Assembly: GCA_001600815.1 (NCBI GenBank)
Contig: BCKZ01000001.1
Location: 912,613-976,612 of the forward strand
Source of the DNA: Alloascoidea hylecoeti
Taxonomy: Eukaryota
Length of the DNA stretch: 64,000 nt
Direction: 5' to 3'
Below the pieces are notes generated by a model. It had not been told where the DNA came from. It searched no databases and saw only the letters and a list, made by a program, of their open reading frames with translations. Made by a program: the position numbers and the translations under genes. Shown piece by piece: positions 15,519 through 52,806 of the stretch. Every line of letters begins with the position of its first letter. The stretch's first letter is position 1.

Positions 15519-15614
15519 GGGTGCTTGGCCGAGTGGTCTAAGGCGTCAGATTTAGGTTCTCCTTTAAAAACTCTGATATCTTCGGATGCGCGAGTTCGAA
15601 TCTCGTGGCACTCA
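15519..15614 (+). tRNA. tRNA-Leu (anticodon TAG) with ~14-nt intron (15557-15570)
   Basis: Acceptor stem GGGTGCT/GGCACTC, D-arm GGCCGAGTGGTCTAAGGC, anticodon stem TCAGA/TCTGA around TT-TAG-G, long variable arm, GTTCGAATC. Confidence 0.93.
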
Positions 15615-16209
15615 ATAAATTTTTGCTTCCTCAAAAGTTTACACGTGTAGCTGTCAGAAAGAGCTAAACGTGCCAACTCTACCAATTGCAAGTGCCCTGT
15701 GGCCCTAGGTGTATTTATTGAATTTCTTCCACACGTTTCAGTCCTCAAAATAGAGGGGTTTTGACCTTTTAATCACATGAAGAACTTACGAGTAGCCACT
15801 GCATTGTGGGACATGTTGCTTTTCCTCCAGAAATCTGGGGATTAGAGAGCCATAATTAATATTTTAGTCTCTCATTCTGGGCATTCGAATTTGTGTTTTT
15901 TCCGGCTTCAGTCAAACATCTCTGATACCATTGAGTCGGCTTGCCATCAGGAATCTTTCTACAATTTTTGTGATTAAAGTTAAACTCATGAAATTAAGTT
16001 AATAATCAGCTTTTGGGAGGTGGAGAAAAAAAAGGAACTAGCAATATTTTTTCTGGAGACTGTATTTAGTTGTTTCTTTTTGGGTATCATAGGAAAATTT
16101 GTTTATCTTTTTTTTTTTACTTTATCATTTTATTATAAATTATAAAAATCTATAAAAAGGTTAAAACGTAAGTTTCCCGCTCTAAATGAGAGATAAAAAG
16201 TAACTATTT

Positions 16210-16283
16210 TGGTCTCTAGCAGGATCGAACTGCTGATCCCCGCGTTATTAGCACGGTGCCTTAACCAACTGGGCCAAGAGACC
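16210..16283 (-). tRNA. tRNA-Ile (anticodon AAT)
   Basis: Reverse complement GGTCTCTTGGCCCAGTTGGTTAAGGCACCGTGCT-AAT-AACGCGGGGATCAGCAGTTCGATCCTGCTAGAGACCA. Confidence 0.96.
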
Positions 16284-18340
16284 AACGATGAAGGGGTGAT
16301 ATTGGCTTCCTAGTCATCAGAATTTAGTCCTCATATTCCTGTCGACGTATGTTATATAGTTTCTAGTTGGTCATTTAATTGAAAATTATGTGCATAGTTA
16401 AAAAAAAAGATTAGAGATTAGTTCGTCTATAATATATAAGCGCGCGCCAATTTCCCCACTATTTTATCTGTTTGTTCTTTTCATTAAGTAATACCCTCAT
16501 TAATATTGTTTCAATTAGATTTGAATTCCATCGCTAGATTCGCTGCTAAAAGCTTATAAGTGATTTCCAAAAGGGAGAAAGAATTAATAATAAATGGTAG
16601 AAATTATACCTTGCAAAAGATATAATAACGTAGTAATTGTATGAAGCTATATAATATTCCTATACATGGATTTGATCAGTTCTACCATTATAATAAATTT
16701 CTAATTGAAGATGCTTTATTGCATTATATTTTTAATATATTGTTACTCCATGGAGAAAAATATCTCATTTGGAAATATAATTGACATTAATATTAATGGT
16801 ATTGTACATTGTAGTTCAATTGTATTAACGGTGGGGGAGGTAATTGAATTAATATACAATTGGCCATGGAATATTTCTTTGATAATGATATCGCTAAGTT
16901 CTTTGTTAACGTTAATATAATTAAATTTGTTTAATTATACAAAGAGGAACCATGTTGCAATTGGGCTTTTGGTGGAGGGGAAATAGAGTTGGGGGTTAGG
17001 TCATATCACCGTAGCTATAGCCAACGATTGAGTTCATACCGTTATATAATATTACCCATGAATCTGTTGTATTTTCCCTTTTCCTTCGTGGTAACGTAGG
17101 ATATATCTCTGATAAATAAATATGAACTTCATAGCTATAGAAAACTTGGAATGTGGTTATTTGTAGCTCTAGCGCTATTTTGTTGGAACCTATTTTAAAT
17201 TCCATATATGCTCTGCAAATTCTCCACTGTAATTATAACAAAATAACATTGAAGGTCTCGAGCACAAACTCAAGCTGGGCTCTTAACTAAACTTCATCAT
17301 TAACAATGAACGTTGACTATATATCTATAATGAAGTCAAGTAGAGCTGTAATATTATTATCACAAACGTTTATCTTCGTTAAGCTTCTATATAAAGTACT
17401 TCCACTTAATTTAGGCCACCTTTTAAGAAATTACTGGTATATGGAAACAACGTATACGATGCTGACCATAGCTATAGCCAATCATACAATTGTCGCGGAC
17501 AGTGATGGCGAGAATTATAATTATAATATCAGTATCAAAGATAATATTCTAATATTCCGAGCGGGAAACAATAATATTGAATACAAGTTGTATTCGGCTG
17601 CATAAATGATCTGAAAAATATTAAATCAGATTTATAATCACTTATTGTCGATTTGTCATAGAACTATGCATGCATTTTCGTTTAATCAAAACATGAGAGT
17701 GCAATTGTGATGTGAAGGTGGAGGAATACGGAGATGTCAAGTCTGAAAGAAAAGATTAAGTTTTCAACTAGCCGGCCAACTGCATATCCATTGGACCATG
17801 CTACAAGTTTACCGGAATATTATACAATTATGGGATGAACATGGCATGCAATTCTCAGACTCCGCTGCAAGAATTACCGTAATATATTATTCCTGAGCAT
17901 GATCATAGAAGATCGCCGAATGTCGAACCTCCAGTTGTGAAGACATATTGGCTGCGTGGGCTCCTCCAGTCTCAAGACCCGGAATTGGCGTGTTAGGTGG
18001 CCTTTTTAAAGATTCCCGAACCTAAATAGCAGACACGCTATGTTCACCCTCACTTTAAATAGTGCTGGAGCAGGCCCAGTCCCAATCCGACGGTGAGGAG
18101 TGGACAAACAAAAGATCTAATTTTTAAATTTAATTTATTATTTTAAAAGATGGAGATTTTGCGGAGGACTAAAATTATATGCACCTACGGTTTTAACTAT
18201 AAGCATGGTTACGTATAAAACAGACACTTTTTCCGTCCAACCTCTTTGCTCCTTTTCTTTCTTCTTCGCTACTTCCATCCGATCTTTCCCTTAAATTTCC
18301 GTTTGGTTTCCAACTTATTCCTTATTATTTATTATTCTCC

Positions 18341-29881: not shown

Positions 29882-31607
29882 TATAATAATTATCGACCTA
29901 AATGTTTGTTAACGAATTTAGCTTTCTGTTAGTATGTTAAGAGGAAAAAAGTTTAATGAAATGATTTCGTTGTGCGGGCGTGGGGTGTTTTAGTCCTACC
30001 TAACTATTCAGTCGAAATGATATTATTGTTACAAGAAAGAAATAAGAAAGGGAAAGGCAAAAGAAGGTTGTAAGTTGAAAGAAATAAATTATTAAGAAGG
30101 ATTATAAAGAAAGTAATTGTATATCTGCAGATGTAGTGCTCAAATCTTATACATTTATTAATTAATCCTTTCGATTATAAACATTAGACCCAATGAGGAG
30201 ACGGAAAAAGTATAATAATGGGTTTATTAGAGGATCGGTGTGGTCCAGGACATATAATTAACCGCCAGTAATACATATTATCACGCCTTCAAAGTTTTCA
30301 GTTTCTGATCACATTCCATAGATTTAAATTTAAAGGCTTTTATTGTCTCTTTTAAGCTTTATAATAAGCTCCTTCTCATCGAGGGTCCTTTTGTGCTTTT
30401 GAAAATTATGAATAGATTCTAATAAAGCACAATTTATTTCATCTATTGATTATATTTAGTTTTATGTGTGGGAATTATCATCACAAATTTCAAATTTTTA
30501 TTGATGAGAATTGCTATTTTATATTATTAAGCTTAGACCAATTATTAGTTCAGAGTTTAACAGCCTGATCTAATGTCAATAGCAACATGACAGTACGTGT
30601 CGAAACTGAGACAACCAAAAAGATAACCTAGCTACATGTAAAAAACCATCGACTGCTGCCAGTCATTATAATCGAGACTTAAGTATATTATATATTGATA
30701 TCGATATCGATTAAGGTACCTACCTAGGTAGTTGTGTTTAGCTACCTGACCATGTCATATTTAATAGCCTATACATAGCTTCTTGATTATGAAATATGCT
30801 ATAATAATAAGTAATTTATAACGTTAAGTTGTCAACTATTCTGCTAGTCCTAACTCCCAACACATGTTACGAAAGGCGCCTAGTCAACTATCGATACGAT
30901 AAAGCGAGAGACGCCCATTCGAATTCAACAAAAACTCTATAATTCGACTATACATATAGTTATGCTCTATTTTCCTCATTTCCTATCTACAACTATTGTA
31001 ATCGGTACTCGCCAATTGTAATAATGTTATCCACCTCTTCCTTACACTCGAAAAGAATTTAAATTGGGTTTGACTTTGCTGCCGTACGTAACACAAGTGG
31101 TAAACTGTCTCACACGATATCACTTAATATCCACGTACGTTTCACTCTTTCCCGGATCACTGCCGAAGATACAGAAGATGATAAATTGTTAATTCTCTCA
31201 AGTTCTCTTATTTAATTTGTAGTAAATTTTGTACCACGCATACGCATTTATCCCTGACTTCAAGATCTACAACCAGTATTCCCTATTCCCCTTACTTTAA
31301 TAATAGATGGGTAATGCAGAGAACGCGATTGATATCGATCATGGATCGAATCGATATTATATTTTATATAATCATTTTCATATTAGATCTAGGTATCATA
31401 TTTTATAGTTATGAAATAATTAGCAGAGTATATTTTGGGTTTCACTTACATTTAGAACCAAATTTCATGATTGAAACTTTGAAGTCACCGCATTATAAGG
31501 TTTAAAGTGAACTGCGACAAGAAAACTTGGCCATGGGTAACTTAAAATGCAAATGAGGAGTTAAGGTTTACAATGAGAAATATATTTACGTGTGTAAATT
31601 ATTTAAT

Positions 31608-31631
31608 GATGATGATGATGATGATGATGAT
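31608..31631. repeat. (GAT)n microsatellite
   Basis: gatgatgatgatgatgatgatgat in intergenic DNA. Confidence 0.85.
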
Positions 31632-32049
31632 ATTGTTGTTTGATTGCCATGAAATTTAAATATAGGTTGGTCGTTTAAATATATAGTGCCCAATTATCTT
31701 ATATACGCATGTAACGTTATGGAATATTCACTAGTACTGTTATCAAGCTAATTCTTAACCTTCATTAATTTCAAACGCAAATTTAATCGAATACAGAATC
31801 ACTATATATTTGTTTAAAAGGTGGATACAACCATCCGATGTAGTAGCAAAAGGCATTAATACGTTAAATTGTATACAAGACTTCCAAGATCTCTAAGAGT
31901 ACTTAAGCTTTTCACCTAAAATCATCTTGTGTCTTTTGATCATGAACATAATTATCTGATAACAGGATTAAGAAACATTTAGCACAGATATCGTTATCAA
32001 CACACAACCTTCAAAACAGCATCATTTCGACCAGTATGTATATTATATT

Positions 32050-34140
32050 AATTATGTATTATATCAGGTGTCATTCTTTGAATATTTAGTGAATAGCCAT
32101 ATTAAAACTATTTAAGAGTGTTTTCCTAAAGCGAATATGAACAATTTCCTAGTAACAAAAAGATACTAGCGGCAAAGTCCATTATTATTAAAAGGAAGTA
32201 AAATTTATTCTCCTTTCGGCCATTTTTGCGTTTCAATCAAATGGGGGTAAATTGATCGTGCTTGGTATTCCGAAAGTTGTTTTAAAAATATGTAAAGAAG
32301 AAAAAGTTTTAGCGATCGAAAGTCAGAAAAGTATTTTCAAATAATTACCCGGACAGTAACAATTAGGGCTCTGGTGTAAAATAATCTTCTGTGCATCGTC
32401 AAAGTTGTCCATTCTTATTGATATTCCAAGTCGAATATCTCATAATTTCTTATATATATAATAAAATAGAGAATGTGGCTATAAAAGCATTGGTCCCACT
32501 TAAAGGTGGGGTATCAACGCTTCTGTGGAGGATCCACCAAGATGATCAAATTAATAGATCGAGATGTAATTAACCTTAAAAATAGGAATTCAGAAAAAGA
32601 AAGTTATTAAGACAAAAATCTTGGAGTAGAGCTATCACCATAATCAGGAATGGAGTAGAAATTAATATAGAAATTCACAATTGTTTCTAACCATCTCATG
32701 TGCTTCGCGTAGAGCAGTTTAGAGATGTTTTGAGAAATTGGTTGACAATCTGTTACACGTTTTACCCCAGACAATTCTTTAAAGCGTAGCCCCCAATTGA
32801 CCTCGACTCCAATAAATTTTACTGGTTTCTAATAGGTTTAAACGAGAATGAAACTTTATCTGATTGACGATTTCGTAGTGTTAGGAGTATATAGGGAATA
32901 AGCGTATTGAGATAAATAGACTCTACTCTATTTACTCAAATTATCATTAATATTGGTGAATTGCCATCCATCTGTCTTTGTGCCTTTCAGATAAATGTGT
33001 AATATAATAGACATTATTTAGACGATAATTTCATATCGTGGAAAAGCTGCATATACTCAACAAGTGTGTCAATATACGTTTTTGGAAGTAGTAGTGAATT
33101 GAAGTAAGCTCTTTAATGTACGCCTCCGTTGGCTGTATTATTGTTTCTGGAATGTCACGGTCAAGCCAAATGAGTAACGACTTCATGAAGGAGTACGTTT
33201 CCACATTCACCTTTAGATCATCTGTTTCCCTAATGTGTAAAACCGAAGAAAGATACACTACACATTATACTGTATCGGCAGATAATCCTAACAGATTATT
33301 CATGTATGATTTTAAAGACGGTGTTTGAAGTACCAATGTTCTTATAAGACACGAACACTCATAGGACCTATGATGGGGGAAGCGAGAGGTTTCCCGTGAA
33401 GTCCACAATCATCCGAATACCATCCCCGACTGCATTCTAAAATGGATGGAACATGCTGCCAAATACTATTAAAATCTCTCCTAGATACGCTGGGCGTAAG
33501 GTCACATATACACACTAAAATAGGGTCTAATATTGCAGCAGAATTGAATTGTAGGTGGGTGATAAACATTCCGAATGCATCTAGACGAGGCTGCTTAAAA
33601 CACGATGGAACCGAAGCGTATCCAGAAATAGATGGTCCAATAAGGTCTTCTTCCAAAATTCTTTGACCTCCGCTGCTTGAGAGTATGTTGGTGGTCTCAT
33701 TGTTAGATTAGAATATTGTTTGTGTTTGAAGTAGACCTTGTGGTCCTCCTCATGCTCTGGATGCACAGGTATAATTATTTCAAGCGTTTTAGGAGAAAAC
33801 ATGGGAAAGTAGGGCTGGTTCTGTGGGGCACCTTTATTTGCCAGCATCGCTGCCTTTATCCACGGATTAATACCCAACAGTGTAACTACGACGGATGTAA
33901 TGGGTTGGTAATGCTTTACTTTGGTGGCAATCAATGGTGCAGAAAGATGTAGAAGTAGAAATGCTTTCAAATTGGTGCTAATCATCAATACTTGCGGGTA
34001 ACTATTTAGATTTATAACTCCAGACTCCAACATCTAACTAAGGGCAATAGGCTTCAATCTAGATATTCTTGCCACTGTATTAATGACTCTATACATAGTA
34101 TTCTTGACTTCTCTCGATTGTATACTGTAATGAATTGAAA
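32050..34140 (-). pseudogene. Degraded ~2-kb coding sequence of unknown origin (multiple stops and frameshifts)
   Basis: Three overlapping minus-strand ORF fragments (33581-34033, 33342-33656, 33031-33258) join by single frameshifts; protein-like reading continues through isolated stops upstream (..RVINTVARISRLKPIALS*MLESG) and downstream (..KPVKFIGVEVNWGLRFKELSG..); GC visibly higher than flanking intergenic DNA. Boundaries approximate. Confidence 0.6.
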
Positions 34141-34695
34141 CAGACAAATGTCATTTTTTAAGTTTTTAGATATCCATAAGTTTATGCTAAAACCGGAACT
34201 ACGGCTTTTAATAATTGTTTCAGAGATTTGTTAATAAAGCAAGAAAATATTTAGCCTTGCAAGCTTCCAACTGCCAATCTCTTTAAATTTAACTTTATTC
34301 CAAGCTCGAGTTATTTAAAAAAAAAAAAGATATATTTATAGCATATAAGGGTTATAATAATTAACCATTTTGAAATGACCGATTGCAAACTTTAAATAGC
34401 ATACACATATTGTATTTAAGATATTTAATATTAATATTTGCTTATAATTGGTTCAGAAACTTCTTGAAGTAGATAGAATCATGATCCCAAGTCTTAACAG
34501 AAACATTTAAAATCAAATGATATTACTTCCTATTATTTCAGTACATGCATCGACCTATAAGCAATTTTTAAAAAATGAAAAAGCTATGAGTGAAAAAAAA
34601 AGAGAATATAAAAATACAACAACAAAGTCAGAACTTCAGTAAGAATTTATATAAAATTGCCAAAATTAATTATGGTAGAATTATAGCCCTCCAGC

Positions 34696-37600
34696 TCATT
34701 TAGTGAATTTTCGGCGCTTAGCCAACATGGAAGGCTCACTATTCCCCCTGTAATTGGTATTGCCATTGCCTTTATGAAAAGAGGGACCATCTCCCTTCCT
34801 GTTCGAATTATGTTTATTCACTCTCGGAAATGGACTTTGAGCTACTCGTTTTTTCTGAAGAAAAATACTGCTAGGTTTTTCCGCTGAGTGAACGGAGCTG
34901 GATTTGCTGCTTTCTCCAACCTTACCCGCAGACGAACTAGTCACTGTGTTAGGAAAAGGACTCTTTAATACACCACGAGATGGATTTTGCCCCTTATGAG
35001 CGTTGGGATTGGAAGGCCGTTTATCAATCGGGAAGGCCTGATGCTCTGCGGCGAAAATAACTTTACGGGAGTTGCTAAACAATTGCGGGTTCTGCTTTGT
35101 AACGGAAGAACCAGCAAAGATCGCGGGAATTCCCGGCACTTTATTCTCCAACAATTTGTATTGCGAAGCAGTTCTCTCATGCTCTTCGTTGAGCATTTGA
35201 AACCTATAAGATGTGAGTAATTAACCTATTAAAAAAAAATAAGAAAATTTTGACATACTTTCCCTCCAATTCATCAATCATACGTTGATAATATCGCCTT
35301 TCATCTTCCCATTTTTTCACTCGTTCATCCTCCTCATTATGAACATTTTCAACCAGCTGTTTAAATGATTCAAGATTCTCCCAAACCAAACGCTGCTCCG
35401 CTTGTAAATCTTGAATTATTTCAGGATACCCGTCAGAGGCTTTAACGGCCGTTAGTTGACCTTCCATTTTATTCACGGCATCAGAAAATCTCCGGACGTG
35501 CGCTCTCAACTTTAAGTTTTCGGATCGTAACATGCTCTTCCCAGTCTTTATTTGTTCATTCCGGTTTTCGGCTTTTTGTAATCTTAAGCTAAGACTTTCA
35601 TTTTCTTTCTTCAATTCGTCTTGCCGTTGGTCTCTCGCTTTAATTCTTCTTTTAAATTCCAGAATTTCATTTTCCAGTTTCTTAATTTGATCCGAATATT
35701 CAGAAGTAGAAATTCCCTCTTTGGAAGTCAGAGATTTTTTGTCATTCAAGGAACCCACTCTTAAGTTTTTAGATTCAGACCTCTTCCCCCCTTTAACGGT
35801 AGATGGAGGAATAGAATTTAATTCATCCTCATCATCTGAAATTAGTAGATTCGATGTTTTTCTTTTTTGACGTACCTGAATTATCTTTAAGCCTTCCTCA
35901 TCCTCCTCTTCTTTTGCGGGTTCATCTACAGTATCACGGGCGACTAATGAATTACCTTTTCCATTTGCTATTTTGTTTTCACTATCTCGAAGCTTACTTT
36001 TGAGACCTGCTTCCTCCTCTTCATTCTCATCGTTTTCTGGCACATCTATTTCTCTGTTTATTACCTCGGTCCCAACACCTTCTACACGTGCTTCCTCAGC
36101 TTTCTCCATATCTACGCTTTCATCGTCTGAAAAATGATCATTTCCACCGGTATGATTATTATTTTCATTATCAGTTTCTTCGTCATCAGAATTGTCTTTA
36201 TCATCTAAACCAAAAGAAAATGTTAGCAACCCGGCCTCCACTGGATCATCGAAAGAGGGACCCAAACTCAATTTGGATTTTTTTCGTCGAGTTTTTCCTG
36301 ATCTCGGTACAGATTCCTTGGGATTGCGTGCTACTAGGTCATATTCTGAAATCGAATTACCATTATCTGTAGTACTAAGCTCAGAGTTATCCTTAATAGA
36401 CCTATCAGCGTCTGACTCCGGCGTCCTTGAAGTTGATCTTCTGGATGAAAATGAGGGAGAACTTGATCTCCCACTTAAAGTAGAATCTCTAAAGAATTCA
36501 GTCGAGACTGGTAATTTATCATTTTCATATGTTATTCTTGCTGCAACAATTTTATCATGACTTCGCTGATGACTGTGTAGATTAACTTCATTTGTGAATG
36601 ATTTTGGCAATTTTATTTCTTTAAAAAAACTCAACGATGTATAAATTGAAATTCCATATAAATATTCATCAACATGTGGTAATGTATTTTTAAATTGTTT
36701 GAACTTCTTTAAAATTTTGTCATATATAATTTTATTTTCAATCTTTATATCTGTAATACGATCTAAAAATGAAAAATCCTGGATTGTTCCGATTTCTAAA
36801 CTCCATGAAACAATCATCATGAAATCAAAAAACTCTGGTGGTTCACATGCCCTATCAATTGGTCTTGCAATCGATCTGTCAATACCCACAAAATATTGTT
36901 CAAATGTATCTCGATATTGTTGGACAGAAAGATCTGGGAAATGGTTAACTGAATCATCAATCGACTTAAGATTACCCGATATATTGCTTCTAAAAAGTGA
37001 TTTAGTTGCAGTGTTAGCGAAGACGGAATGGGAAATATCATTTTGATTGTCTGGTAATAGTCCCAAAGCTTCAGAAAATTTAATCTCTATAGGCCTGATA
37101 TAAAACAGTGTATAGACCAGTAATTTCGCAAGAATTTCCGGCAATAATCTGGGTAAACCTTTAATTGTTCCGTTAGAACGACGTAAAGCTGTGTTAATAA
37201 CAAAAACAATACCATCGGAGGTAGCAAATACATTCCGTATTGGAGTTTCAGCATTTGGATTATTAGCATAACTAATAGATAACAATTGAGAGCTGTTAAC
37301 ATAAGGACAAGCTAAATGAAATATCATATCATATAATAAATTAATTAGTTTTCCAGCTATTTCAATCCATTTTTTGGCAGCCATTGCATTTAAACTTCCA
37401 TTTTTATAATATACTTTATTTTTAAATCTATCTTTCTTGATTAAGGAATTGTATAAAAACATAGGATCAACAGCATTATTTTTATCTACGCCAAACCAAT
37501 AATTTGAAGACTCATCTTTATGATCATCTATAAACGAAGTCAAAGCCTGATCATTAATTACAATATCTGGAGATTGAACAGAGGCATCCGAACATAACTC

Positions 37601-38590
37601 TTTTATAAATATTTCGTGCCAATTAATGAGTAGATCAGTAACGCAACATCTAATTTCATCTGAAATTCGTACACCACCAGTTAAGGCAATATCATCCTTA
37701 AAGATTTTATTTGCAAAAATTAAACTTGTGTTGAAATTCAACAGATAACCAAAGCATGTATCTGAACCTGGAGTTAGCCACTGTTTGATAGTATTTTCCG
37801 TATATTCTCTGCCTTCAGTATCATCTGTTTCGCTCTCAGAATCATTATATCTTAGTGCACAATCAAATTGAAAAATATGTTTAGACGCCGCAATTAGATC
37901 GTTGAGCTTTTTAAATGGCTTATTTTCTTGATTTGTACAAGTTGCAAAATATGTTAATGCAAAACAAAACGAAGATTTTAAACATTCAGGTAAGGTTCCA
38001 TGTTCTGGATTATCATCATAAAGTGGATAATTGAATTCGTATTTCATTATAGACAAATTTATTTCGTGAAGTGCAACCGCTGCCTCTGGTGTAACTTTCA
38101 TTTGGGGAACGTCCAGCGTAGGTACTAATTTAGCACAAGCAGATTTCAATCTTTCATCGATTTCAGGGTGACAATTAGGCATATGTTTACCAAGGGGTGA
38201 AAAGGCTTGCAAAGCCACCCAAAGAATTCGAATATATTCTGTTCCACCATATTTTCCAATTTTGACACCGCTGGAGGATTTCCTTTTATCAGTTTCAAAT
38301 ATCAGCTCATAAGGTTCGGGTGTGTGCTTTGCCATACTTTGACCTTTTGCAAAATAAGCCTTCAATAATGCTTGAAGATTTTTATACCGAATTGTTTCTT
38401 TAAAATTCTGAATATTATAAACAATCCAATCTGTCTCTGAAAATAGGGTTGATAATACATCAATACAGGGGAAATACTTTCGCGTCGTTCGAGGAATGCA
38501 GGCAATATACCAATGGGCTAGACCATTTGGATCAGCCAACCGTAGCAGCCTCTCATCATTGTCCATAGAACTAGTCTCATTATCATTCAT
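34696..38590 (-). CDS. ~1279-aa protein: TLH-type (telomere-linked helicase family) tyrosine-recombinase-like N-terminal half, acidic disordered region, coiled coil, basic tail. Exons 38590-35259 and 35203-34696
   Basis: Intron 35204-35258 (GTATGT...TACTCAC...TAG) fuses the 1128-aa and 166-aa ORFs in frame (ELEGK|FQMLNEEH). Ordered motifs resemble the TLH N-terminal region (see findings). The CDS is well supported; the family call is from memory. Confidence 0.7.
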
Positions 38591-38677
38591 TCTAGGACCT
38601 CTGGTAACTATGATACCATTTAGTGTAAATAACTCAGGACGTGATGCGAAAAAACTAGGGAGATAGAACTATTATCG

Positions 38678-38685
38678 CCGGGTAA
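38678..38685 (+). promoter_or_regulatory. Reb1-type site CCGGGTAA in the 159-bp divergent promoter between the TLH-like gene and ARP9
   Basis: Exact CCGGGTAA match between the two start codons (38590 minus, 38750 plus). Confidence 0.55.
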
Positions 38686-38749
38686 TACTCGATTATAAAC
38701 TCACCTGTAAAATCTGAAAAGATATACGCGTTATAATTTGTTTTTATAA

Positions 38750-40240
38750 ATGCCTTTATTCAGAGAAGACCATTATCTCGTATGTTTTCTCTATTTTCTC
38801 TATTTTGGTTTATGATTGAATTTGCTTCTAACAGAAGATGTTCATTTAGGTTATTGCACCGGGATCTCGAACGACTCTGGCTCAGTTGGGCTTACACGAA
38901 TCGTTGACACCTCCAAGCATCGAAGTCGCAACGAAAGTTTATAGACATCCTGATCATCTTGATAATGATAAATATTTCAAATCAACAGGTGATGAAGCGA
39001 GTGCCATATATCCAATTGTCAAGGGTAAAATTGTCAATGTTGATGCTTTGAACTATTTGATGTCAGTATATTTTTCACTTTATTACAACCAATCTCCATA
39101 TTAACTGTATCATTATATATTAGAAAACTCATATTTAAATCTTCGACTAAGAAATTTAGTGTTACACCATATACACCTCTGCTCCTTGTTTCTGATAGCA
39201 GATGGTCTCGCGTTAATATTGAAAAAATTACTCAGTATGTGTTTGAAACATTAAATATACCAGCATTTACGGTAGTACCCAACTCTCTCTGTGCTTCATT
39301 TGCTTATGGATTGCAGAGTTGTACATGTATTGTTGATATTGGATTTGAAAAAACAGAAATTACACCAATTGTCGAGTTTTGTCCCGTTGAACATGCAACG
39401 ATTACAATAAATTACGGTGGTAGTTCTATTAATAAAAGTTTGTCAAAATTATTACCAAATCTAGATCCTGAAACAATTGATGAGCTAAAGAAATCAGAAA
39501 TTTATGAAATTTTAAATAGCATTGACGCTGCAAAGAATTCGTTTTTATTTGCAAATCATCCACCGGAAGACGAAGGTATAATTGATGTTGCGGCAATTGT
39601 AACAAGTGGTAATACTCGTGAAATTTTGGAGCAAAGAGAAAAGGAAAAGAAACAAGGTAAAAAAGAGGCACCAAAACCAAATGCTGAAAGAGAAACAAGT
39701 GAATTCACTGATTCGAAAGGTAATACATTCACAATCGGTAAAGAAAGATTCAAAGGTGCTGAAGATTTATTAGAGCGTATTGCTGATGCAACATTTAGAT
39801 CTCTTTCAAAAGTTGATGAAATTGTTAAAAGAGCAAATTGTTGGGACGGTATTATTTTAGTTGGAAGAGGTGCTTCAATCAAAGGTTTCAAAGAAGCTTT
39901 TTATACATTATTAGAAGAAAAATATCTTGTTTCAAGAACAAATACATATTCTGAAGTTCCATCTTCTTTTACGTCTGGTCAAAATACTCCACGAAATGGT
40001 ACACCTTTTAGAATGAATCAAATACCACAGCCATTGTCCCATGGTCAATCCCCAACTTCAATTAAATTAGGTAAAATGCCAGACTATTTTACTGAGTGGA
40101 AACATTATGGGTATAGTAATGCTTCTTTCTTGGGTGCACAAATAGCCTCAAAGCAAATATTTGGTGGACATGCGAATGGTTCTTATGTTAGTCGAAATGA
40201 TTATAATGAAGTTGGCCCATTGGCTATATGGGATATCTGA
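38750..40240 (+). CDS. ARP9: Actin-related protein Arp9 (SWI/SNF-RSC). Exons 38750-38779, 38850-39061, 39124-40240
   Basis: MPLFREDHYL|VIAPGSRTTLAQLG, IYPIVKG, EDEGIIDVAAIVTSGNTREIL, KMPDYFTEWK, FLGAQIASK; introns GTATGT..TAG and GTCAGT..TAG keep the frame. Confidence 0.88.
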
Positions 40241-46378: not shown

Positions 46379-47533
46379 TCAAGTTCCAAGAATCTCTTGA
46401 ATTGCTCTAAACAAATCAACAGTTTCCTTAATCATAAAAGGAGACAGTCCTTGCCATTGACCATCCCTTTTTTCCGGAATCTTAGGCACATTCCTTAAAG
46501 GAAAAGATAAACCTTTAACTCCAACTCTTTTATTAAAGGATTGCCATGAAATAATTTGTGACATTAGACAACCAAGATCATTAGTTGGTATTGCACTAAT
46601 AGGAATCAATTTAAAATGATATAATGATAGATCTTGTCTTCTTGCGGAACTTATTTCTTCAAACATTAATGTTATTGGTCGCCATTCTTTTGTATAATCT
46701 GTTTCACCATGCATCTCCTCATATGTATCCTCAAAGGTATCCTCAGATGTATCCTCAGATGTATCCTCAGATGAGTCTTCAGATGGGTCCTGAAAAGTTA
46801 AATAAAAAACTCCTTCTGAAATTCTTTGTGTAATTAAATCGGGATTTAAGGGTTGAATTTCACTCCTACCAAGTATATTATTTGAAAAATATTTACCCCC
46901 TTTGTCGATATGTAAAACATCCCACCACATTTTGGCCTGACAAGAGTCTAGTTCCCAATATATAGTTGAATCTTTTGCTATTGTTAATGGTGGGAAACTA
47001 TGCGTCCTTGGGGTTGCATGCCTATATGTTAATATAATCAAATAGTCGTCAGGAAATAATCTTGTCTTTATATGTCCGAAAGCATAAGCATAACTGATTT
47101 TAACACCATAACCTGGATTATAATCCATTGATTTATTTTGATGTGAACGTGTACGCTTTGCAATCCAATCATCATTGTAAAATTCATAATTATCTTGTTG
47201 AAATTTTGTAAAGAATTTCTTATCAGGTAATAAAAAAGGGCATTGTAATTTCTTATATAAATAACCCCACGTATCATCAATTAATTCTTCAGTTGTACAT
47301 GTTTGTAAACTCACTTCTGTATAAATATCCTTTGCAATCAAGTACTGTTTCCATAAATATCCAAATTTTGGTTTATAAAATTCATTAATAATATCAAATC
47401 CTAAACCTTGTATCGCCCTTGATTTAAAAATATCATTGTCAATCCTGCGAAACTCCTTACAAGTGAGCCGCCATTCTGGTGAACTTTGAACCAAAATACG
47501 CTTTAAATCGTATGGTAAATCCTGAAGTATCAT
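46379..47533 (-). CDS. F-box protein, Ucc1(YLR224W)-like; probable start at 47533 (ORF track extends to 47629)
   Basis: LQDLPYDLKRIL...LTCKEF F-box pattern; IDDTWGYLYKKLQCP resembles Ucc1 IADSWYIVYNALQYP as recalled. Confidence 0.6.
   Translation of the reverse strand: MILQDLPYDLKRILVQSSPEWRLTCKEFRRIDNDIFKSRAIQGLGFDIINEFYKPKFGYLWKQYLIAKDIYTEVSLQTCTTEELIDDTWGYLYKKLQCPFLLPDKKFFTKFQQDNYEFYNDDWIAKRTRSHQNKSMDYNPGYGVKISYAYAFGHIKTRLFPDDYLIILTYRHATPRTHSFPPLTIAKDSTIYWELDSCQAKMWWDVLHIDKGGKYFSNNILGRSEIQPLNPDLITQRISEGVFYLTFQDPSEDSSEDTSEDTSEDTFEDTYEEMHGETDYTKEWRPITLMFEEISSARRQDLSLYHFKLIPISAIPTNDLGCLMSQIISWQSFNKRVGVKGLSFPLRNVPKIPEKRDGQWQGLSPFMIKETVDLFRAIQEILGT
46722..46785. repeat. 12-bp coding minisatellite (GTATCCTCAGAT) encoding SEDT/FEDT/YEE repeats
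   Basis: atgtatcctcaaaggtatcctcagatgtatcctcagatgtatcctcagatgagtcttcagatg. Confidence 0.85.
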
Positions 47534-47646
47534 TATAAATTTTGATTGAATAAAAATCCAATGATAAATGGATCCAGCTGCAGGCACCAGCCAAAACTTA
47601 CATGTAGATGAGATAAAGTTAACATCCATGCATCATAATTTAAAGG

Positions 47647-47666: not shown

Positions 47667-47744
47667 GCCCAATTCTTTTTTTATCTAAATATTTTTTTTT
47701 TTGGCTTCAAAAGAAAAATAAGCATCAAGGAGTATATTTAAAAA

Positions 47745-49595
47745 ATGGAGGAAAATACAACTACTGAAAAAAATACTTCTGAATCTTCTGAATTAAATAC
47801 TTTTGAATCATTCAATCTTGATGCTCGATTATTACAAGCGATCAACCAATTAAAATTTTCTGAACCAACTCCTGTTCAAGCAAAAGCTATACCATTAGCA
47901 TTAAATGCTAAAAAAGATATTATTGCAAGGGCTAAAACAGGTTCTGGTAAAACAGCGGCTTATGCTATTCCTATTATACACAATATATTAGAAGAAAAAA
48001 ATAATTCTACAAATAATTCTTCTGATAAATTTGTTAAAAGTTTAATTTTAGTACCGACTAGAGAATTATCAGAACAAGTTACGAAACTATTTTCAAGTTT
48101 AACTCTATACTGTGGTAAACAAATAAAAATTGCAAATATTGGTGCAAGTACTTCAATTCAAGTTCAACAATCATTATTACAACAAATTCCTGATGTAGTT
48201 ATTTCAACTCCATCTCGAGCATTAACACAAATTAAAAATAATAACTTAGATGTTTCAAAATTAAAATTTTTTGTTATTGATGAAGCGGATTTAGTTGTCT
48301 CTTATGGGCACGGTGATGATTTAACAAATTTATCAACATTATTACCAATTAAAAAAAATTTACAAACTTGGTTATTATCTGCAACTTTAAATGATGAAGT
48401 TTCAAAATTAAAAGAATCATTTTGTAGAAATTGTGTTATATTAAAAGTTGAAAATGATGATGATGATAAAAATAAATTATTACAATATTATGTCAAATGT
48501 AATGAATTGGATAAATTCTTACTTGCTTACGTTATTTTTAAATTACATTTAATTAAAGGTAAAACAATCATATTCGTAAATGATATTGATAGAGGTTATC
48601 GATTGAAATTATTTTTTGAACAATTTGGTATTAAAAGTTGTATATTAAATGCTGAATTACCAATTAGTTCAAGATTACATATTGTTGAAGAATTCAATAA
48701 ACATGTTTATAATTTATTGATTGCAACTGATGAAGCAGATAAATTTGCAAATGATGAGGATGATGACATCAAAGAAGAACCAAAAGATGAAGAAGGTGAT
48801 GTTAAACTATTAGATGTTAAAGAAACATCTAAAGAGGAAGAAGAAGAAGAAGAAACAAAGGAAGAGAAAGAAAAACCTACCACTACAAACAAGAAATCAA
48901 AAAAATCAAAAAAATCAAAAGAATCAAGATATAAAAAAGATTCGGAATATGGTGTTTCGAGAGGAGTTGATTTTAGAAATGTATCATGTGTTTTAAATTT
49001 TGATTTACCATTAACATCGAAATCTTATACTCATAGAATTGGTCGTACAGCAAGAGCTGGTAAATCAGGAACTGCATTATCATTTGTTGTTTCAAAAGAT
49101 CAATGGGGTAAACATAAAGCATCATCACTAGAAACTGCAAAACGTGATGAAAAAATCTTAGCAAGAATTATTAAACAACAGGGTAAAATTGATCAAAAAT
49201 TAGAACCTTATCAATTTGATATGAAACAAGTTGAAGGATTCCGATATCGTATGGAAGATGCTTTTAGAGCGGTTACAAAAGTAGCAATTAAAGAAGCAAG
49301 AATTAAAGAAATTAAAAATGAATTAGTAACAAGTGAAAAATTAAAAAGACATTTTGAAGAAAATCCAACAGATTTATTAAATTTAAGACACGATAAAGAA
49401 TTACATCCTTCAAGAGTTCAACATCATTTAAAAAGAATTCCTGATTATTTAATGCCAAGTGCAGGGTCTGTTAAAAAAAATACAATAACTTCTTTTAGAA
49501 ATTCACAACATAATCGTGTTAGAAAACAAAAATTTACAAAGAGAAAAGGGGGGAAAAAGAGAAGTGATCCTTTAAAATCTTTTAGATCTAGGTAA
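47745..49595 (+). CDS. DBP9: DEAD-box RNA helicase Dbp9/DDX56
   Basis: AKTGSGKT, PTRELS, DEADL, SAT, EYGVSRGVDF, HRIGRTARAG, C-terminal DPLKSF. Confidence 0.95.
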   Translation: MEENTTTEKNTSESSELNTFESFNLDARLLQAINQLKFSEPTPVQAKAIPLALNAKKDIIARAKTGSGKTAAYAIPIIHNILEEKNNSTNNSSDKFVKSLILVPTRELSEQVTKLFSSLTLYCGKQIKIANIGASTSIQVQQSLLQQIPDVVISTPSRALTQIKNNNLDVSKLKFFVIDEADLVVSYGHGDDLTNLSTLLPIKKNLQTWLLSATLNDEVSKLKESFCRNCVILKVENDDDDKNKLLQYYVKCNELDKFLLAYVIFKLHLIKGKTIIFVNDIDRGYRLKLFFEQFGIKSCILNAELPISSRLHIVEEFNKHVYNLLIATDEADKFANDEDDDIKEEPKDEEGDVKLLDVKETSKEEEEEEETKEEKEKPTTTNKKSKKSKKSKESRYKKDSEYGVSRGVDFRNVSCVLNFDLPLTSKSYTHRIGRTARAGKSGTALSFVVSKDQWGKHKASSLETAKRDEKILARIIKQQGKIDQKLEPYQFDMKQVEGFRYRMEDAFRAVTKVAIKEARIKEIKNELVTSEKLKRHFEENPTDLLNLRHDKELHPSRVQHHLKRIPDYLMPSAGSVKKNTITSFRNSQHNRVRKQKFTKRKGGKKRSDPLKSFRSR

Positions 49596-50740: not shown

Positions 50741-52806
50741 TTAAAAACAATTCCTCCTTTTTGTCTCCTTGGTGTTTGGTAATTTTAAATCCGGTGTTTT
50801 CCCAAATCCTAAAATTCCATGTTCTTTGGTAGAAATACTATTGGTATGTAAATGACTGTTAATAGCTTTGGAAGATTTACTCTTTGGAATAATATCGTTA
50901 TCAGTTTTTCCAGATAAATGAGTTATTGTAACAGATCTTGGAATTTTACTTTTTTTAGGTGTAATTGGAATGTTTTGCAACTGATTATGATTATGATTAT
51001 GATTTGCAATTGATTCATCATTTGGATTTTTTATTGGTGATTTTGTGCTTGTTGAGATTGGTCGTGTTGTTGAATTTTTTTTATTAGCGCCTTCAAAAGG
51101 TGTAATTGAAAGAGAATGATGATAATTAGAATGAACTCGAGATTGTGAGGTTGATTCTGATTTTGATTTTGATTTTGAATGTAAATGAAATGAAGAATTT
51201 TTCATTTGATTTTCTTTAATATCTTCTTTAATTATAAATTCAGGCTTAGTTGCATCTTTTACTTTTTTAACACTCATACATGATTTTGAATTTATCATTC
51301 CATGACCAATTGATTTCGAAATTGAACTATCATATTGTTCTTTTAATGGTTTTGATTGTTTTAAATCTGAACCATTTCTAGTGGAAGTAGTAGTGATATT
51401 AAACCTTTGAGATTTTGGATCTAATGTACGATTTTCTTTTGCTGATTCTAATGTTGGAAGGTGTTTTGATTTGGTATTCGAAATATTATTAAAGTTGGAT
51501 CTTTGATGCGATTGAGAACTAGACTTTTGGTGTGATTTCAATTGTGATCGAGAACTAAAATTTCCAGCTGATTTGTCTTTCTCAGTATTAGAAACATTAT
51601 TATTATTATTATTATTATTATTAACCCTTGGTTTACTTGGTGATCTAGTTATTGAAAGAGAATTATGATAATCACTATTATTAACACGTAATGAATGAAT
51701 ATCATTTTGTGTTTTAGAACGTGGAATAGGTGATACTTCATTCATATTATTATTATTATAATTATTAACACCAATTGAATATTTTGAAGTTGATCTTGGA
51801 ATAAATGATGAAGATTTATCATGGATTGATAATTTTTTTGTAGTTGGTGATTTAATTAAAGTACTAGGATGATATTGATTATGATCATTATTGTTTGATG
51901 ATGAGACATTATTTGATGGATTTTTAGATCTAGAATTAAAATTCAATGTTGACACTTTTTCAAAATTTTCATGACCGAATTCTTTAGAAATTTGTAACGT
52001 ATGATGAGCACTTTTTGATTTTAAGTTTCCAGATGAAATGAATGGAGTTGTTATATTTGATTTTGATCTCATATGAGTAGTTTTAAGTGGTCGTAAATCA
52101 ATTAAATTGTCAGTGTGAATTTTTTTGGGAGAGAGAGAAAAACATGATTTGTGTGAATGAGTAGGTTTAGTATTATCAAAGATTTCAGTTATTTGATTAT
52201 AACCAGTTTTTCTTCTTTTTGTTGCAGAAGAAAGATGAGTTGTTGGGTCTCTTTTGACAGAAGGAGATCCAAAGAGAGTACCTTCAGTAATTGTTAAATC
52301 GTTATCATCCGACGCGTCATCTTCATTTAAATATCTTCTAGCAGGTGTAATACTCGAAGGTAGTTTTGGGGTTGAAGGAGTAATTTTAGGAGTTTGTGTT
52401 GGAATTCTTGAAGTTGTTGTTTTCGACGGAGATGATCTTTTGTTTGGGCGAGAAGGAGATCTTGAGTATAAATGTCTTGATTTTCTTGTAGCGGCCGTTA
52501 CACTGTAGTGAGTCGATATTGATTTCATACGATCGAACTCCTTCTGATGAGCGGAGAAGAATCTTGGATCGTTTTTCGATTGGGATTTGGCAGGAGAGGA
52601 AGATAGAGTCGGCAAAATCCCTACGGTTATTGTCAGCGAGCAACATCTCAGTAGCTTTGGATGGAATACTTACGGGTCGCTCTTTCATTCAATTCTTCTA
52701 TAATACTCTTACTCAGGGAGTCGGTAAAGCCCAAATCGGATAACTTTTCGTCGAAAGTCAAGAAGCCTCGCCGAGAATCGTGGCCGCGAGAATCGTGGTC
52801 CCCCAT
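50741..52806 (-). CDS. SHE1: She1-like microtubule-associated protein (~670 aa). Exons 52806-52674 and 52620-50741
   Basis: Intron 52621-52673 GTAAGT...GCTGAC...TAG joins LGFTDSLSKSIIEELNERAT-R to FFSAHQKEFDRMKSISTHY, matching the two N-terminal blocks of S. cerevisiae She1 as recalled; remainder basic and S/T/P/N-rich. Confidence 0.7.

Follow-up and report, generated by a model that had tools for sequence, protein, structure and literature searches.

What is the origin of a long yeast protein for which standard domain searches give no family? This question is raised by a minus-strand gene in a 64,000-nt stretch of DNA from Alloascoidea hylecoeti (assembly GCA_001600815.1, contig BCKZ01000001.1, forward-strand positions 912,613 to 976,612), which was analyzed at its full length and is called the window hereafter. 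The gene spans positions 34,696 to 38,590 of the window. An earlier interpretation made from the letters of the window (the sequence-only reading) regarded it as a domesticated tyrosine recombinase of the telomere-linked helicase (TLH) type, with dead catalytic motifs and with the helicase replaced by an acidic and coiled-coil tail. TLH genes lie at chromosome ends in many fungi. Our profile comparisons established, at the level of sequence, that the N-terminal half of the window protein is homologous to the TLH-domain region of TLH-type proteins. The best explanation, to which we assign a probability of about 0.6, is that the locus is an intact two-exon host gene of which amino acids (aa) ~260–580 descended from a TLH-domain module. 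Our verdict, as far as sequence can tell, is that this budding yeast carries a TLH/OrsD family member of a new type, one that is helicase-less, finger-less, and coiled-coil-bearing.

An exhaustive phmmer search of aa 1–700 of the window protein against 1.84 billion representative proteins yielded three matches at E ≤ 0.001, namely the query itself, P0002, and P0003. P0002 is a yeast-like open reading frame (ORF) of 1134 aa (E = 3.1e-20, 27% identity, query 46–507 versus 221–674) with the same order of parts as the window protein: a conserved domain, an acidic/Ser-rich region, and a short C-terminal helical region. The window protein and P0002 were aligned and are referred to as the yeast pair. 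P0003, which matched in five short stretches (E = 5.5e-4), was dropped as a homologue since it is a repeat protein of low complexity. For the two exons, Pfam returned no family at E ≤ 0.1, and for sub-segments none at E ≤ 10, and no chain of the PDB sequence set matched the window protein or the profile of the pair at E ≤ 10. When the window protein, P0002, and the alignment of the two were used as queries in word-indexed protein searches, they retrieved nothing but themselves, and a metagenome scan with the motifs of the yeast pair gave 79 pattern matches, 0 of which were confirmed. P0002 also carries about 170 extra N-terminal residues (~55–215) with a Cx2Cx13Hx4H finger, which aligns to the second C2H2 finger of the TLH-type family described below. 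In the pair alignment, this finger-bearing segment is absent from the window protein.

The family used for comparison was retrieved independently of the yeast sequence. The motif H.TGGQP.RG.E, taken from a TLH consensus given in the sequence-only reading, was back-translated and scanned against a metagenome collection. At least 119 loci were found, and the matches were spread over many contigs of the same metagenome series. Among the matches listed, 90 of 119 belonged to one family with the context F.ELLL...H.TGGQPARG.E...R.RN....RN.F, the remainder being mainly truncated ORFs or fortuitous matches in GC-rich DNA; 30 of the listed family loci had open frames of at least 900 aa. When 12 long family ORFs were searched against Pfam, OrsD, DEAD, and Helicase_C were present together in six, DEAD and Helicase_C in two, and OrsD only in four. 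According to passages of a preprint (bioRxiv 10.1101/2024.02.27.582403), TLH proteins carry two C2H2 motifs on the N-terminal side, a stretch of ~250 residues named the 'TLH domain', and RecQ helicase motifs, and the same passages report them from S. pombe, Pyricularia/Magnaporthe, Ustilago, Metarhizium, and Fusarium as products of multi-copy genes. Subtelomeric proteins with OrsD/DUF3505, DEAD, and Helicase_C are described in part of a second preprint (bioRxiv 10.1101/2023.02.05.527183). The retrieved family was considered TLH-type because its OrsD, unannotated domain, and DEAD/Helicase_C match this published architecture, and the consensus thus proved to retrieve a real family. The term TLH-type is used here for the domain architecture of the metagenome ORFs and not for a telomeric position.

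Several OrsD-only ORFs could be judged from their downstream DNA. In L030 (425–5000), the helicase continues after the stop in another frame, via a frameshift or an intron. L017 (536–3364) and L082 (439–3162) are helicase-less ORFs with OrsD and the TLH domain, followed by more than 1.6 kb of helicase-free DNA, and the flank of L071, also OrsD-only, is too short to judge a downstream helicase. The helicase-less forms of the family measure about 900–970 aa. For the family alignment, 25 of the 30 long ORFs were kept after removal of cores more than 90% identical; the span aligned began 700 residues ahead of the motif and reached 300 residues past it. A domain-only alignment of 25 TLH-domain sequences (A4; loci L015–L093) contains invariant columns that are not forced by the retrieval pattern (F52, N80, R87, K104, R117, P136, R202, and Y250), and its near-invariant columns include N88, G94, Y102, L119, P120, Y130, W275, and H276. 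No Pfam family spans the TLH domain of the A4 members.

Comparison of the yeast pair with the family by hhalign gave a probability of 97.4% (P = 1.3e-11, score 101, 281 columns, window aa 260–579), and the control with the reversed family gave 0.06%. A second hhalign comparison, with A4, gave 92.4% (P = 5.3e-7) over window aa 406–578. The hmmsearch domain in the window protein covered aa 312–525 at 22.4 bits. When the hidden Markov model (HMM) of the family was searched against the 921 six-frame ORFs of the window (≥30 aa), it matched the target gene only (E = 3.6e-7; next best, E = 0.76). Conversely, among 99 family candidates searched with the HMM of the yeast pair, the best full-length loci were L043 (1.1e-9), L017 (5e-6), and L071 (1.4e-5). 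L043 has no helicase in its locus, but only 72 nt lie downstream, and the OrsD scan did not cover it. The TLH match is no artefact of retrieval because the yeast proteins lack the retrieval motif. These results bear out the N-terminal resemblance to TLH proteins that had been proposed. The accompanying claim of eight corresponding blocks, all the quoted motif strings of which were found in the translation, held for six of the eight, which hhalign aligned as proposed (WLTPGS..., FIDD...YWF, KW...HLACPYVNSSQ, RNVF...G, RLLP...YIRP, and YRD). Of the other two, the opening one (SFCFALTYF...) falls beyond the aligned range, and IVSW does not stand opposite WH; instead, VSWS faces the family AGH, in an alignment extension of zero confidence.

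Within the homologous region, the alignments showed that most family-invariant residues are lost from the window protein. The counterpart of the retrieval motif, HLACPYVNSSQLLS, keeps the His, but TGGQP is gone and no Arg occurs anywhere in C428–L436; the Arg of the family motif falls opposite Q435 or N432, depending on the run. P0002 has two Arg in the equivalent stretch and may keep the motif Arg. The residues kept by the window protein are the His before the motif, RN, G, R.LP, Y...RP, and the Arg of YR. The position of K104 (family YHK) is a gap, and the position of Y250 is occupied by D605, again in an extension of zero confidence. The degenerate motifs pointed out earlier, a counterpart of H.TGGQP.RG.E without Arg and YRD in place of YRH, were therefore both recovered.

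The absence of DEAH/RecQ helicase motifs, also noted before, was corroborated for the gene and for the DNA downstream of it. Pfam matched no helicase domain in the gene, and an HMM of the TLH helicase run over the six frames of the window detected just an unrelated DEAD-box gene (47742–49592). That a helicase had been replaced by the tail was not demonstrated, since helicase-less proteins with OrsD and the TLH domain exist and include the best-scoring full-length relatives. Because of these relatives, and because no helicase remnant (and likewise no repeat) was found in the downstream 4.8 kb (29900–34700), which are poor in ORFs, replacement of a helicase is unnecessary as an explanation, though possible.

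The reading frame of the gene was reconstructed from two minus-strand ORFs in the ORF list, 38590..35204 (1128 aa) and 35196..34696 (166 aa), which are in different frames and separated by 7 nt. A 55-nt phase-2 intron lies between them, with GTATGT from 35258, TACTCAC at 35219–35213, and TAG ending at 35204. Joining 38590..35259 to 35203..34696 by script gave 3840 nt, that is, 1279 codons and a stop with zero internal stops, so that the intron and the intact 1279-aa gene described by the sequence-only reading were reproduced. The pattern GTATGT-N20-50-TACTMAC has one match in the 64-kb window, at the target intron, versus a chance expectation of 0.09, and 9 of 100 shuffled windows held at least one match. 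The start codon of the gene is supported because the N-terminus aligns with P0002. The end of the P0002 ORF (...R-Y-V...) may represent an unspliced GTATGT in the same phase and at the same relative place as the target intron. The actin-related gene at 38750–40240 (+) has two short introns, GTATGT...TTCTAAC...TAG and GTATAT...TATTAAC...TAG; since its branch sites are loose, the TACTCAC of the target intron fits the style of the species.

The protein's C-terminal half has the three elements that had been read from the letters, namely an acidic region, a heptad-periodic region, and a basic end. Residues 661–960 contain 22% D + E and 19% S + T and are not alignable with P0002 beyond a common composition. 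Residues 961–1115 contain 41% charged residues and 1% Pro, with the strongest 3.5-residue hydrophobic periodicity in the protein (maximum 1.78; the 95th percentile of 500 shuffles was 1.17), and gave weak coiled-coil matches in Pfam and PDB searches. It is probable that aa 961–1110 form a coiled coil. The final AKRRKFTK has the look of a nuclear localization signal and may act as one. The coordinates of all features are given in Table 1.

Table 1. Features of the target gene and its promoter in window coordinates.
Feature	Position	Strand	Basis or remark
TLH-homologous region (middle region and TLH domain), aa 260–579	36854..37813	(-)	hhalign probability 97.4%
Degenerate counterpart of H.TGGQP.RG.E, aa 425–438 (HLACPYVNSSQLLS)	37277..37318	(-)	hhalign alignments; no Arg
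Best-conserved block, aa 451–502 (IRN..., G460, RLLP, Y493, YIRPIE)	37085..37240	(-)	Corresponds to RNiF..G and RfLP..VGqLl..YL..V.P
YRD, aa 559–561, counterpart of invariant YRH	36908..36916	(-)	Arg kept, His lost (D561)
Exon 1	35259..38590	(-)	Codons 1–1110 and first two bases of codon 1111; ORF list
Intron, 55 nt, phase 2	35204..35258	(-)	GTATGT...TACTCAC...TAG
Exon 2 including stop codon; basic, S/P/N-rich tail	34696..35203	(-)	ORF list, joined translation
Acidic, Ser/Thr-rich region, aa 661–960	35711..36610	(-)	Composition; probably disordered
Heptad-periodic, charged, Pro-poor region, aa 961–1110	35259..35710	(-)	Runs a few residues into exon 2
Last 8 residues, AKRRKFTK	34699..34722	(-)	Joined translation
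Divergent promoter, 159 bp, common to target and actin-related (ARP9-like) gene	38591..38749	.	TTACCCGG at 38678-38685

A history consistent with these observations can be proposed. In filamentous fungi, the module stands after OrsD-type C2H2 fingers and is itself followed either by a RecQ-type helicase, as in the TLH proteins, or by the end of the protein, as in the helicase-less forms. The yeast copy would have lost the zinc-finger segment, of which the orthologue P0002 retains one finger, as well as H.TGGQP.RG.E and most other invariant residues; RN..G, R.LP...Y...RP, and YR would have been retained, and the acidic disordered region, the coiled coil, and the basic tail would be carried in addition. 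The protein is expected to be non-enzymatic, nuclear, and dimerizing through its coiled coil, and the old module may have been reused as a surface that binds DNA or chromatin or that acts as a scaffold, like other co-opted element proteins. In short, this looks like a multi-copy chromosome-end gene family turned to a new and probably non-enzymatic use in the nucleus. The mobile-element origin in the sequence-only reading is an assumption.

Several points weigh against the proposal. The role suggested for the yeast gene is drawn by analogy. Two family members are known in yeasts, and constraint rests on a single comparison at 27% identity. Pfam OrsD did not match the window protein (E ≤ 1) or P0002. 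The nearest language-model neighbors of P0002 in Atlas, Ascomycota OrsD clusters of 912 and 933 aa (scores 0.95 and 0.93), speak for the proposal, as leads only, but the Atlas consistency rule (4 of 10 best named hits share a family) makes the OrsD label doubtful. Finally, a maximum-likelihood tree built from 31 domain sequences attaches the yeast pair at an unresolved base by a branch of 4.6–4.9 changes per site; with this long branch and base, the tree is silent on whether the ancestor was helicase-bearing or helicase-less.

The sequence-only reading had gone further, in that the TLH domain was taken as the catalytic domain of a mobile-element tyrosine recombinase and the gene as a dead domesticated recombinase, parallel to but independent of Ndc10/Gcr1. 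We regard this as a tentative alternative. The order of residues in A4, with an invariant R, K (YHK; K104), R (RFLP; R117), R-H (YRH; R202), and Y (Y250) and with H or R ~12 residues before the Tyr, is the catalytic order of tyrosine recombinases, and by eye K104 is placed where Cre-type enzymes have the hairpin Lys. Against a profile of 13 PF00589 genes of E. coli K-12, four landmarks of the TLH family were collinear: the Arg of RG.E aligned with the Arg of box I, YRH with the Arg of (H)xxRH, AGH with the His of GH, and Y250 with the Tyr that acts as nucleophile. The comparison gave P = 0.059, and 0.011 with catalytic domains only, 0.009 with the P4-type subgroup, and 0.0046 with the trimmed domain, versus P = 0.3 in the reversed control, but the hhalign probabilities were 0.9–7.6% and those of the yeast pair itself 0.1–0.2%. 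In this register, R560 (the second Arg) is the sole catalytic landmark kept by the window protein. DUF3435 clusters appeared in the Atlas listing of P0002 at 0.83 and 0.80, scores at which they are leads only. No recombinase was found by hmmsearch of A4 on PDB; neither Pfam nor NCBIfam gave a recombinase family for any of the 25 A4 members, and one of the 25 touched an integrase in PHROGs at E = 0.14, which is noise level. Pfam likewise matched no recombinase family (PF00589, DUF3435, or Crypton) in the window protein. Two AlphaFold2 models of the window protein, one of 700 aa from a single sequence and one of 257 aa from a two-sequence alignment, had mean predicted local distance difference test scores of 32.2 and 37.6, respectively, and were too poor for a fold comparison. 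In a full-text search of a limited literature collection, no paper connected TLH genes to tyrosine recombinases, and the portions of text covered held no report of TLH gene transposition. Of the profile matches expected by the sequence-only reading, the one to the TLH N-terminal region was obtained, and the one to tyrosine recombinases stayed, for the yeast pair, at the 0.1–0.2% given above. We regard a tyrosine-recombinase identity of the TLH domain as suggestive, though unproven. In its fullest form, in which the TLH domain would be a true tyrosine-recombinase catalytic domain, the TLH and OrsD kin would be unrecognised recombinase-encoding elements, and the yeast gene would be an independent domestication as a dimeric chromatin or chromosome-structure protein, the idea appears rather unlikely to us; if true, it would amount to a second event of the Ndc10 kind that drew on another source.

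Descent could also have been vertical, from an ancient OrsD/TLH-domain cellular gene of Ascomycota, in which case the locus would be a diverged host gene and not a co-opted selfish or multi-copy element. Such a history would agree with the existence of helicase-less OrsD + TLH ORFs (L017 and L082), with the large size of the OrsD-bearing Atlas clusters near P0002 (71 and 621 members), and with the placement of the gene among housekeeping genes. However, one yeast-like homologue in 1.84e9 representatives means that many losses or extreme divergence would be needed, the family is repeated over many contigs of one metagenome series, and TLH genes are described as multi-copy in the preprint passages cited above; we consider this descent doubtful. 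The absence of any match in Pfam, PDB sequences, and word-indexed searches might suggest an orphan, fast-evolving yeast protein that resembles TLH by chance. This is very improbable in view of the hhalign P value with its flat reversed control, the reciprocal HMM matches, the unique match among the window ORFs, and the collinearity of both yeast proteins with the family, which in P0002 extends through the zinc finger. Equally remote is an element gene that is still or was recently active, for which no direct point speaks: the protein cluster has one member on one contig, the 64-kb window holds one copy of the gene, no flanking repeats were seen on its 3' side, a housekeeping gene shares its promoter, and the residues invariant in the family are gone.

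The surroundings of this gene are those of an ordinary chromosomal region. The two ends of the window are 34.7 kb and 25.4 kb away, and within this range the gene does not show the subtelomeric setting of TLH genes. By Pfam annotation, the neighboring genes are ordinary (an SBF-like transporter, fibrillarin, glutamine synthetase, a kinase, and an SH3-PX protein), in keeping with the housekeeping location described earlier. The ATG of the actin-family neighbor is at 38750, and its Pfam label is just 'Actin'; the provisional name ARP9 follows the sequence-only reading and the adjacency to the transporter gene. The divergent promoter between the two genes was found as claimed, together with its TTACCCGG site, which is presumably of the Reb1 type. 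TTACCCGG occurs at three sites in the window (32345, 38678, and 47647) versus 0.42 expected, and 0 of 100 shuffles reached three. All three sites are in promoter-like spacers: one upstream of snR5, one between the target and the ARP gene, and one between the divergent genes 46379–47629 and 47745–49595.

Some further features of the window were recorded. The snR5 H/ACA small nucleolar RNA lies at 32135–32294 (-) in the ORF-poor stretch 29900–34700 (59.1 bits, E = 2.2e-8), with TTACCCGG at 32345–32352, about 50 bp upstream. Two ORFs, 46379–47629 (-) (416 aa) and 50741–52528 (-) (595 aa), matched no Pfam family at E ≤ 1e-5. A tRNA-Leu(TAG) gene of 96 nt is located at 15519–15614 (+), and a tRNA-Ile(AAT) gene is close by at 16209–16284.

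A helicase-less and finger-less derivative that is single-copy in the window and resides in a housekeeping region suggests that the TLH module can be kept for its own sake, and the yeast gene offers a simple genetic system for asking what this module binds. The residue pattern of the TLH domain provides a testable hypothesis of a recombinase-type DNA enzyme, which, if true, would change the view of the subtelomeric TLH families. In addition, a gene that is invisible to Pfam, PDB, and billion-sequence searches was placed via a family fetched by a single motif.

Compared with the TLH helicases, the window protein has the same TLH-domain region that lies upstream of their helicase, with conserved blocks in the same order, and P0002 aligns through the second C2H2 as well. 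In contrast to them, it has no DEAD/Helicase_C, no zinc fingers, and neither H.TGGQP.RG.E nor the His of YRH, and it possesses an acidic disordered region, a probable coiled coil, and a basic tail. Its gene is at least 25 kb from the window ends among housekeeping genes, with one copy in the window. The helicase-less OrsD proteins (L017, L071, and L082, and the Atlas clusters of 912 and 933 aa) share a TLH domain without helicase, but they keep both OrsD fingers and all invariant residues and end just past the TLH domain, whereas the yeast gene has lost invariant residues and has about 620 additional tail residues.

With tyrosine recombinases (Cre, XerD, and lambda-Int, and the DUF3435 'Captain' proteins), the TLH family has in common that its R, R-H, H, and Y are collinear with the catalytic landmarks, and by eye the R.LP...Y...RP block of the window protein resembles their hairpin-plus-helix segment. 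The difference is that the match is not significant (≤7.6%) and that the window protein has R560 alone of these landmarks.

Ndc10 combines an N-terminal module with a C-terminal coiled coil, a layout that the window protein resembles. Part of the text of a previous study (Kojima and Jurka 2011, PMC3212892) describes Cbf2/Ndc10, Gcr1, Msn1/Hot1, and Cdg1 as derived from CryptonF elements, with GCR1_C as the sole domain common to all. In the window protein, Pfam matched neither GCR1_C nor an Ndc10 family at E ≤ 1, and no PDB chain, Ndc10 included, was matched. Because GCR1_C is absent, the yeast gene is not considered one of the Crypton-derived genes; the separateness asserted by the sequence-only reading is thus upheld, and the analogy is functional only. 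The two cases differ in this domain and in the source family, and they are alike in concept, in that a nuclear yeast protein would have reused a DNA enzyme module of the element type from which the catalytic residues are gone.

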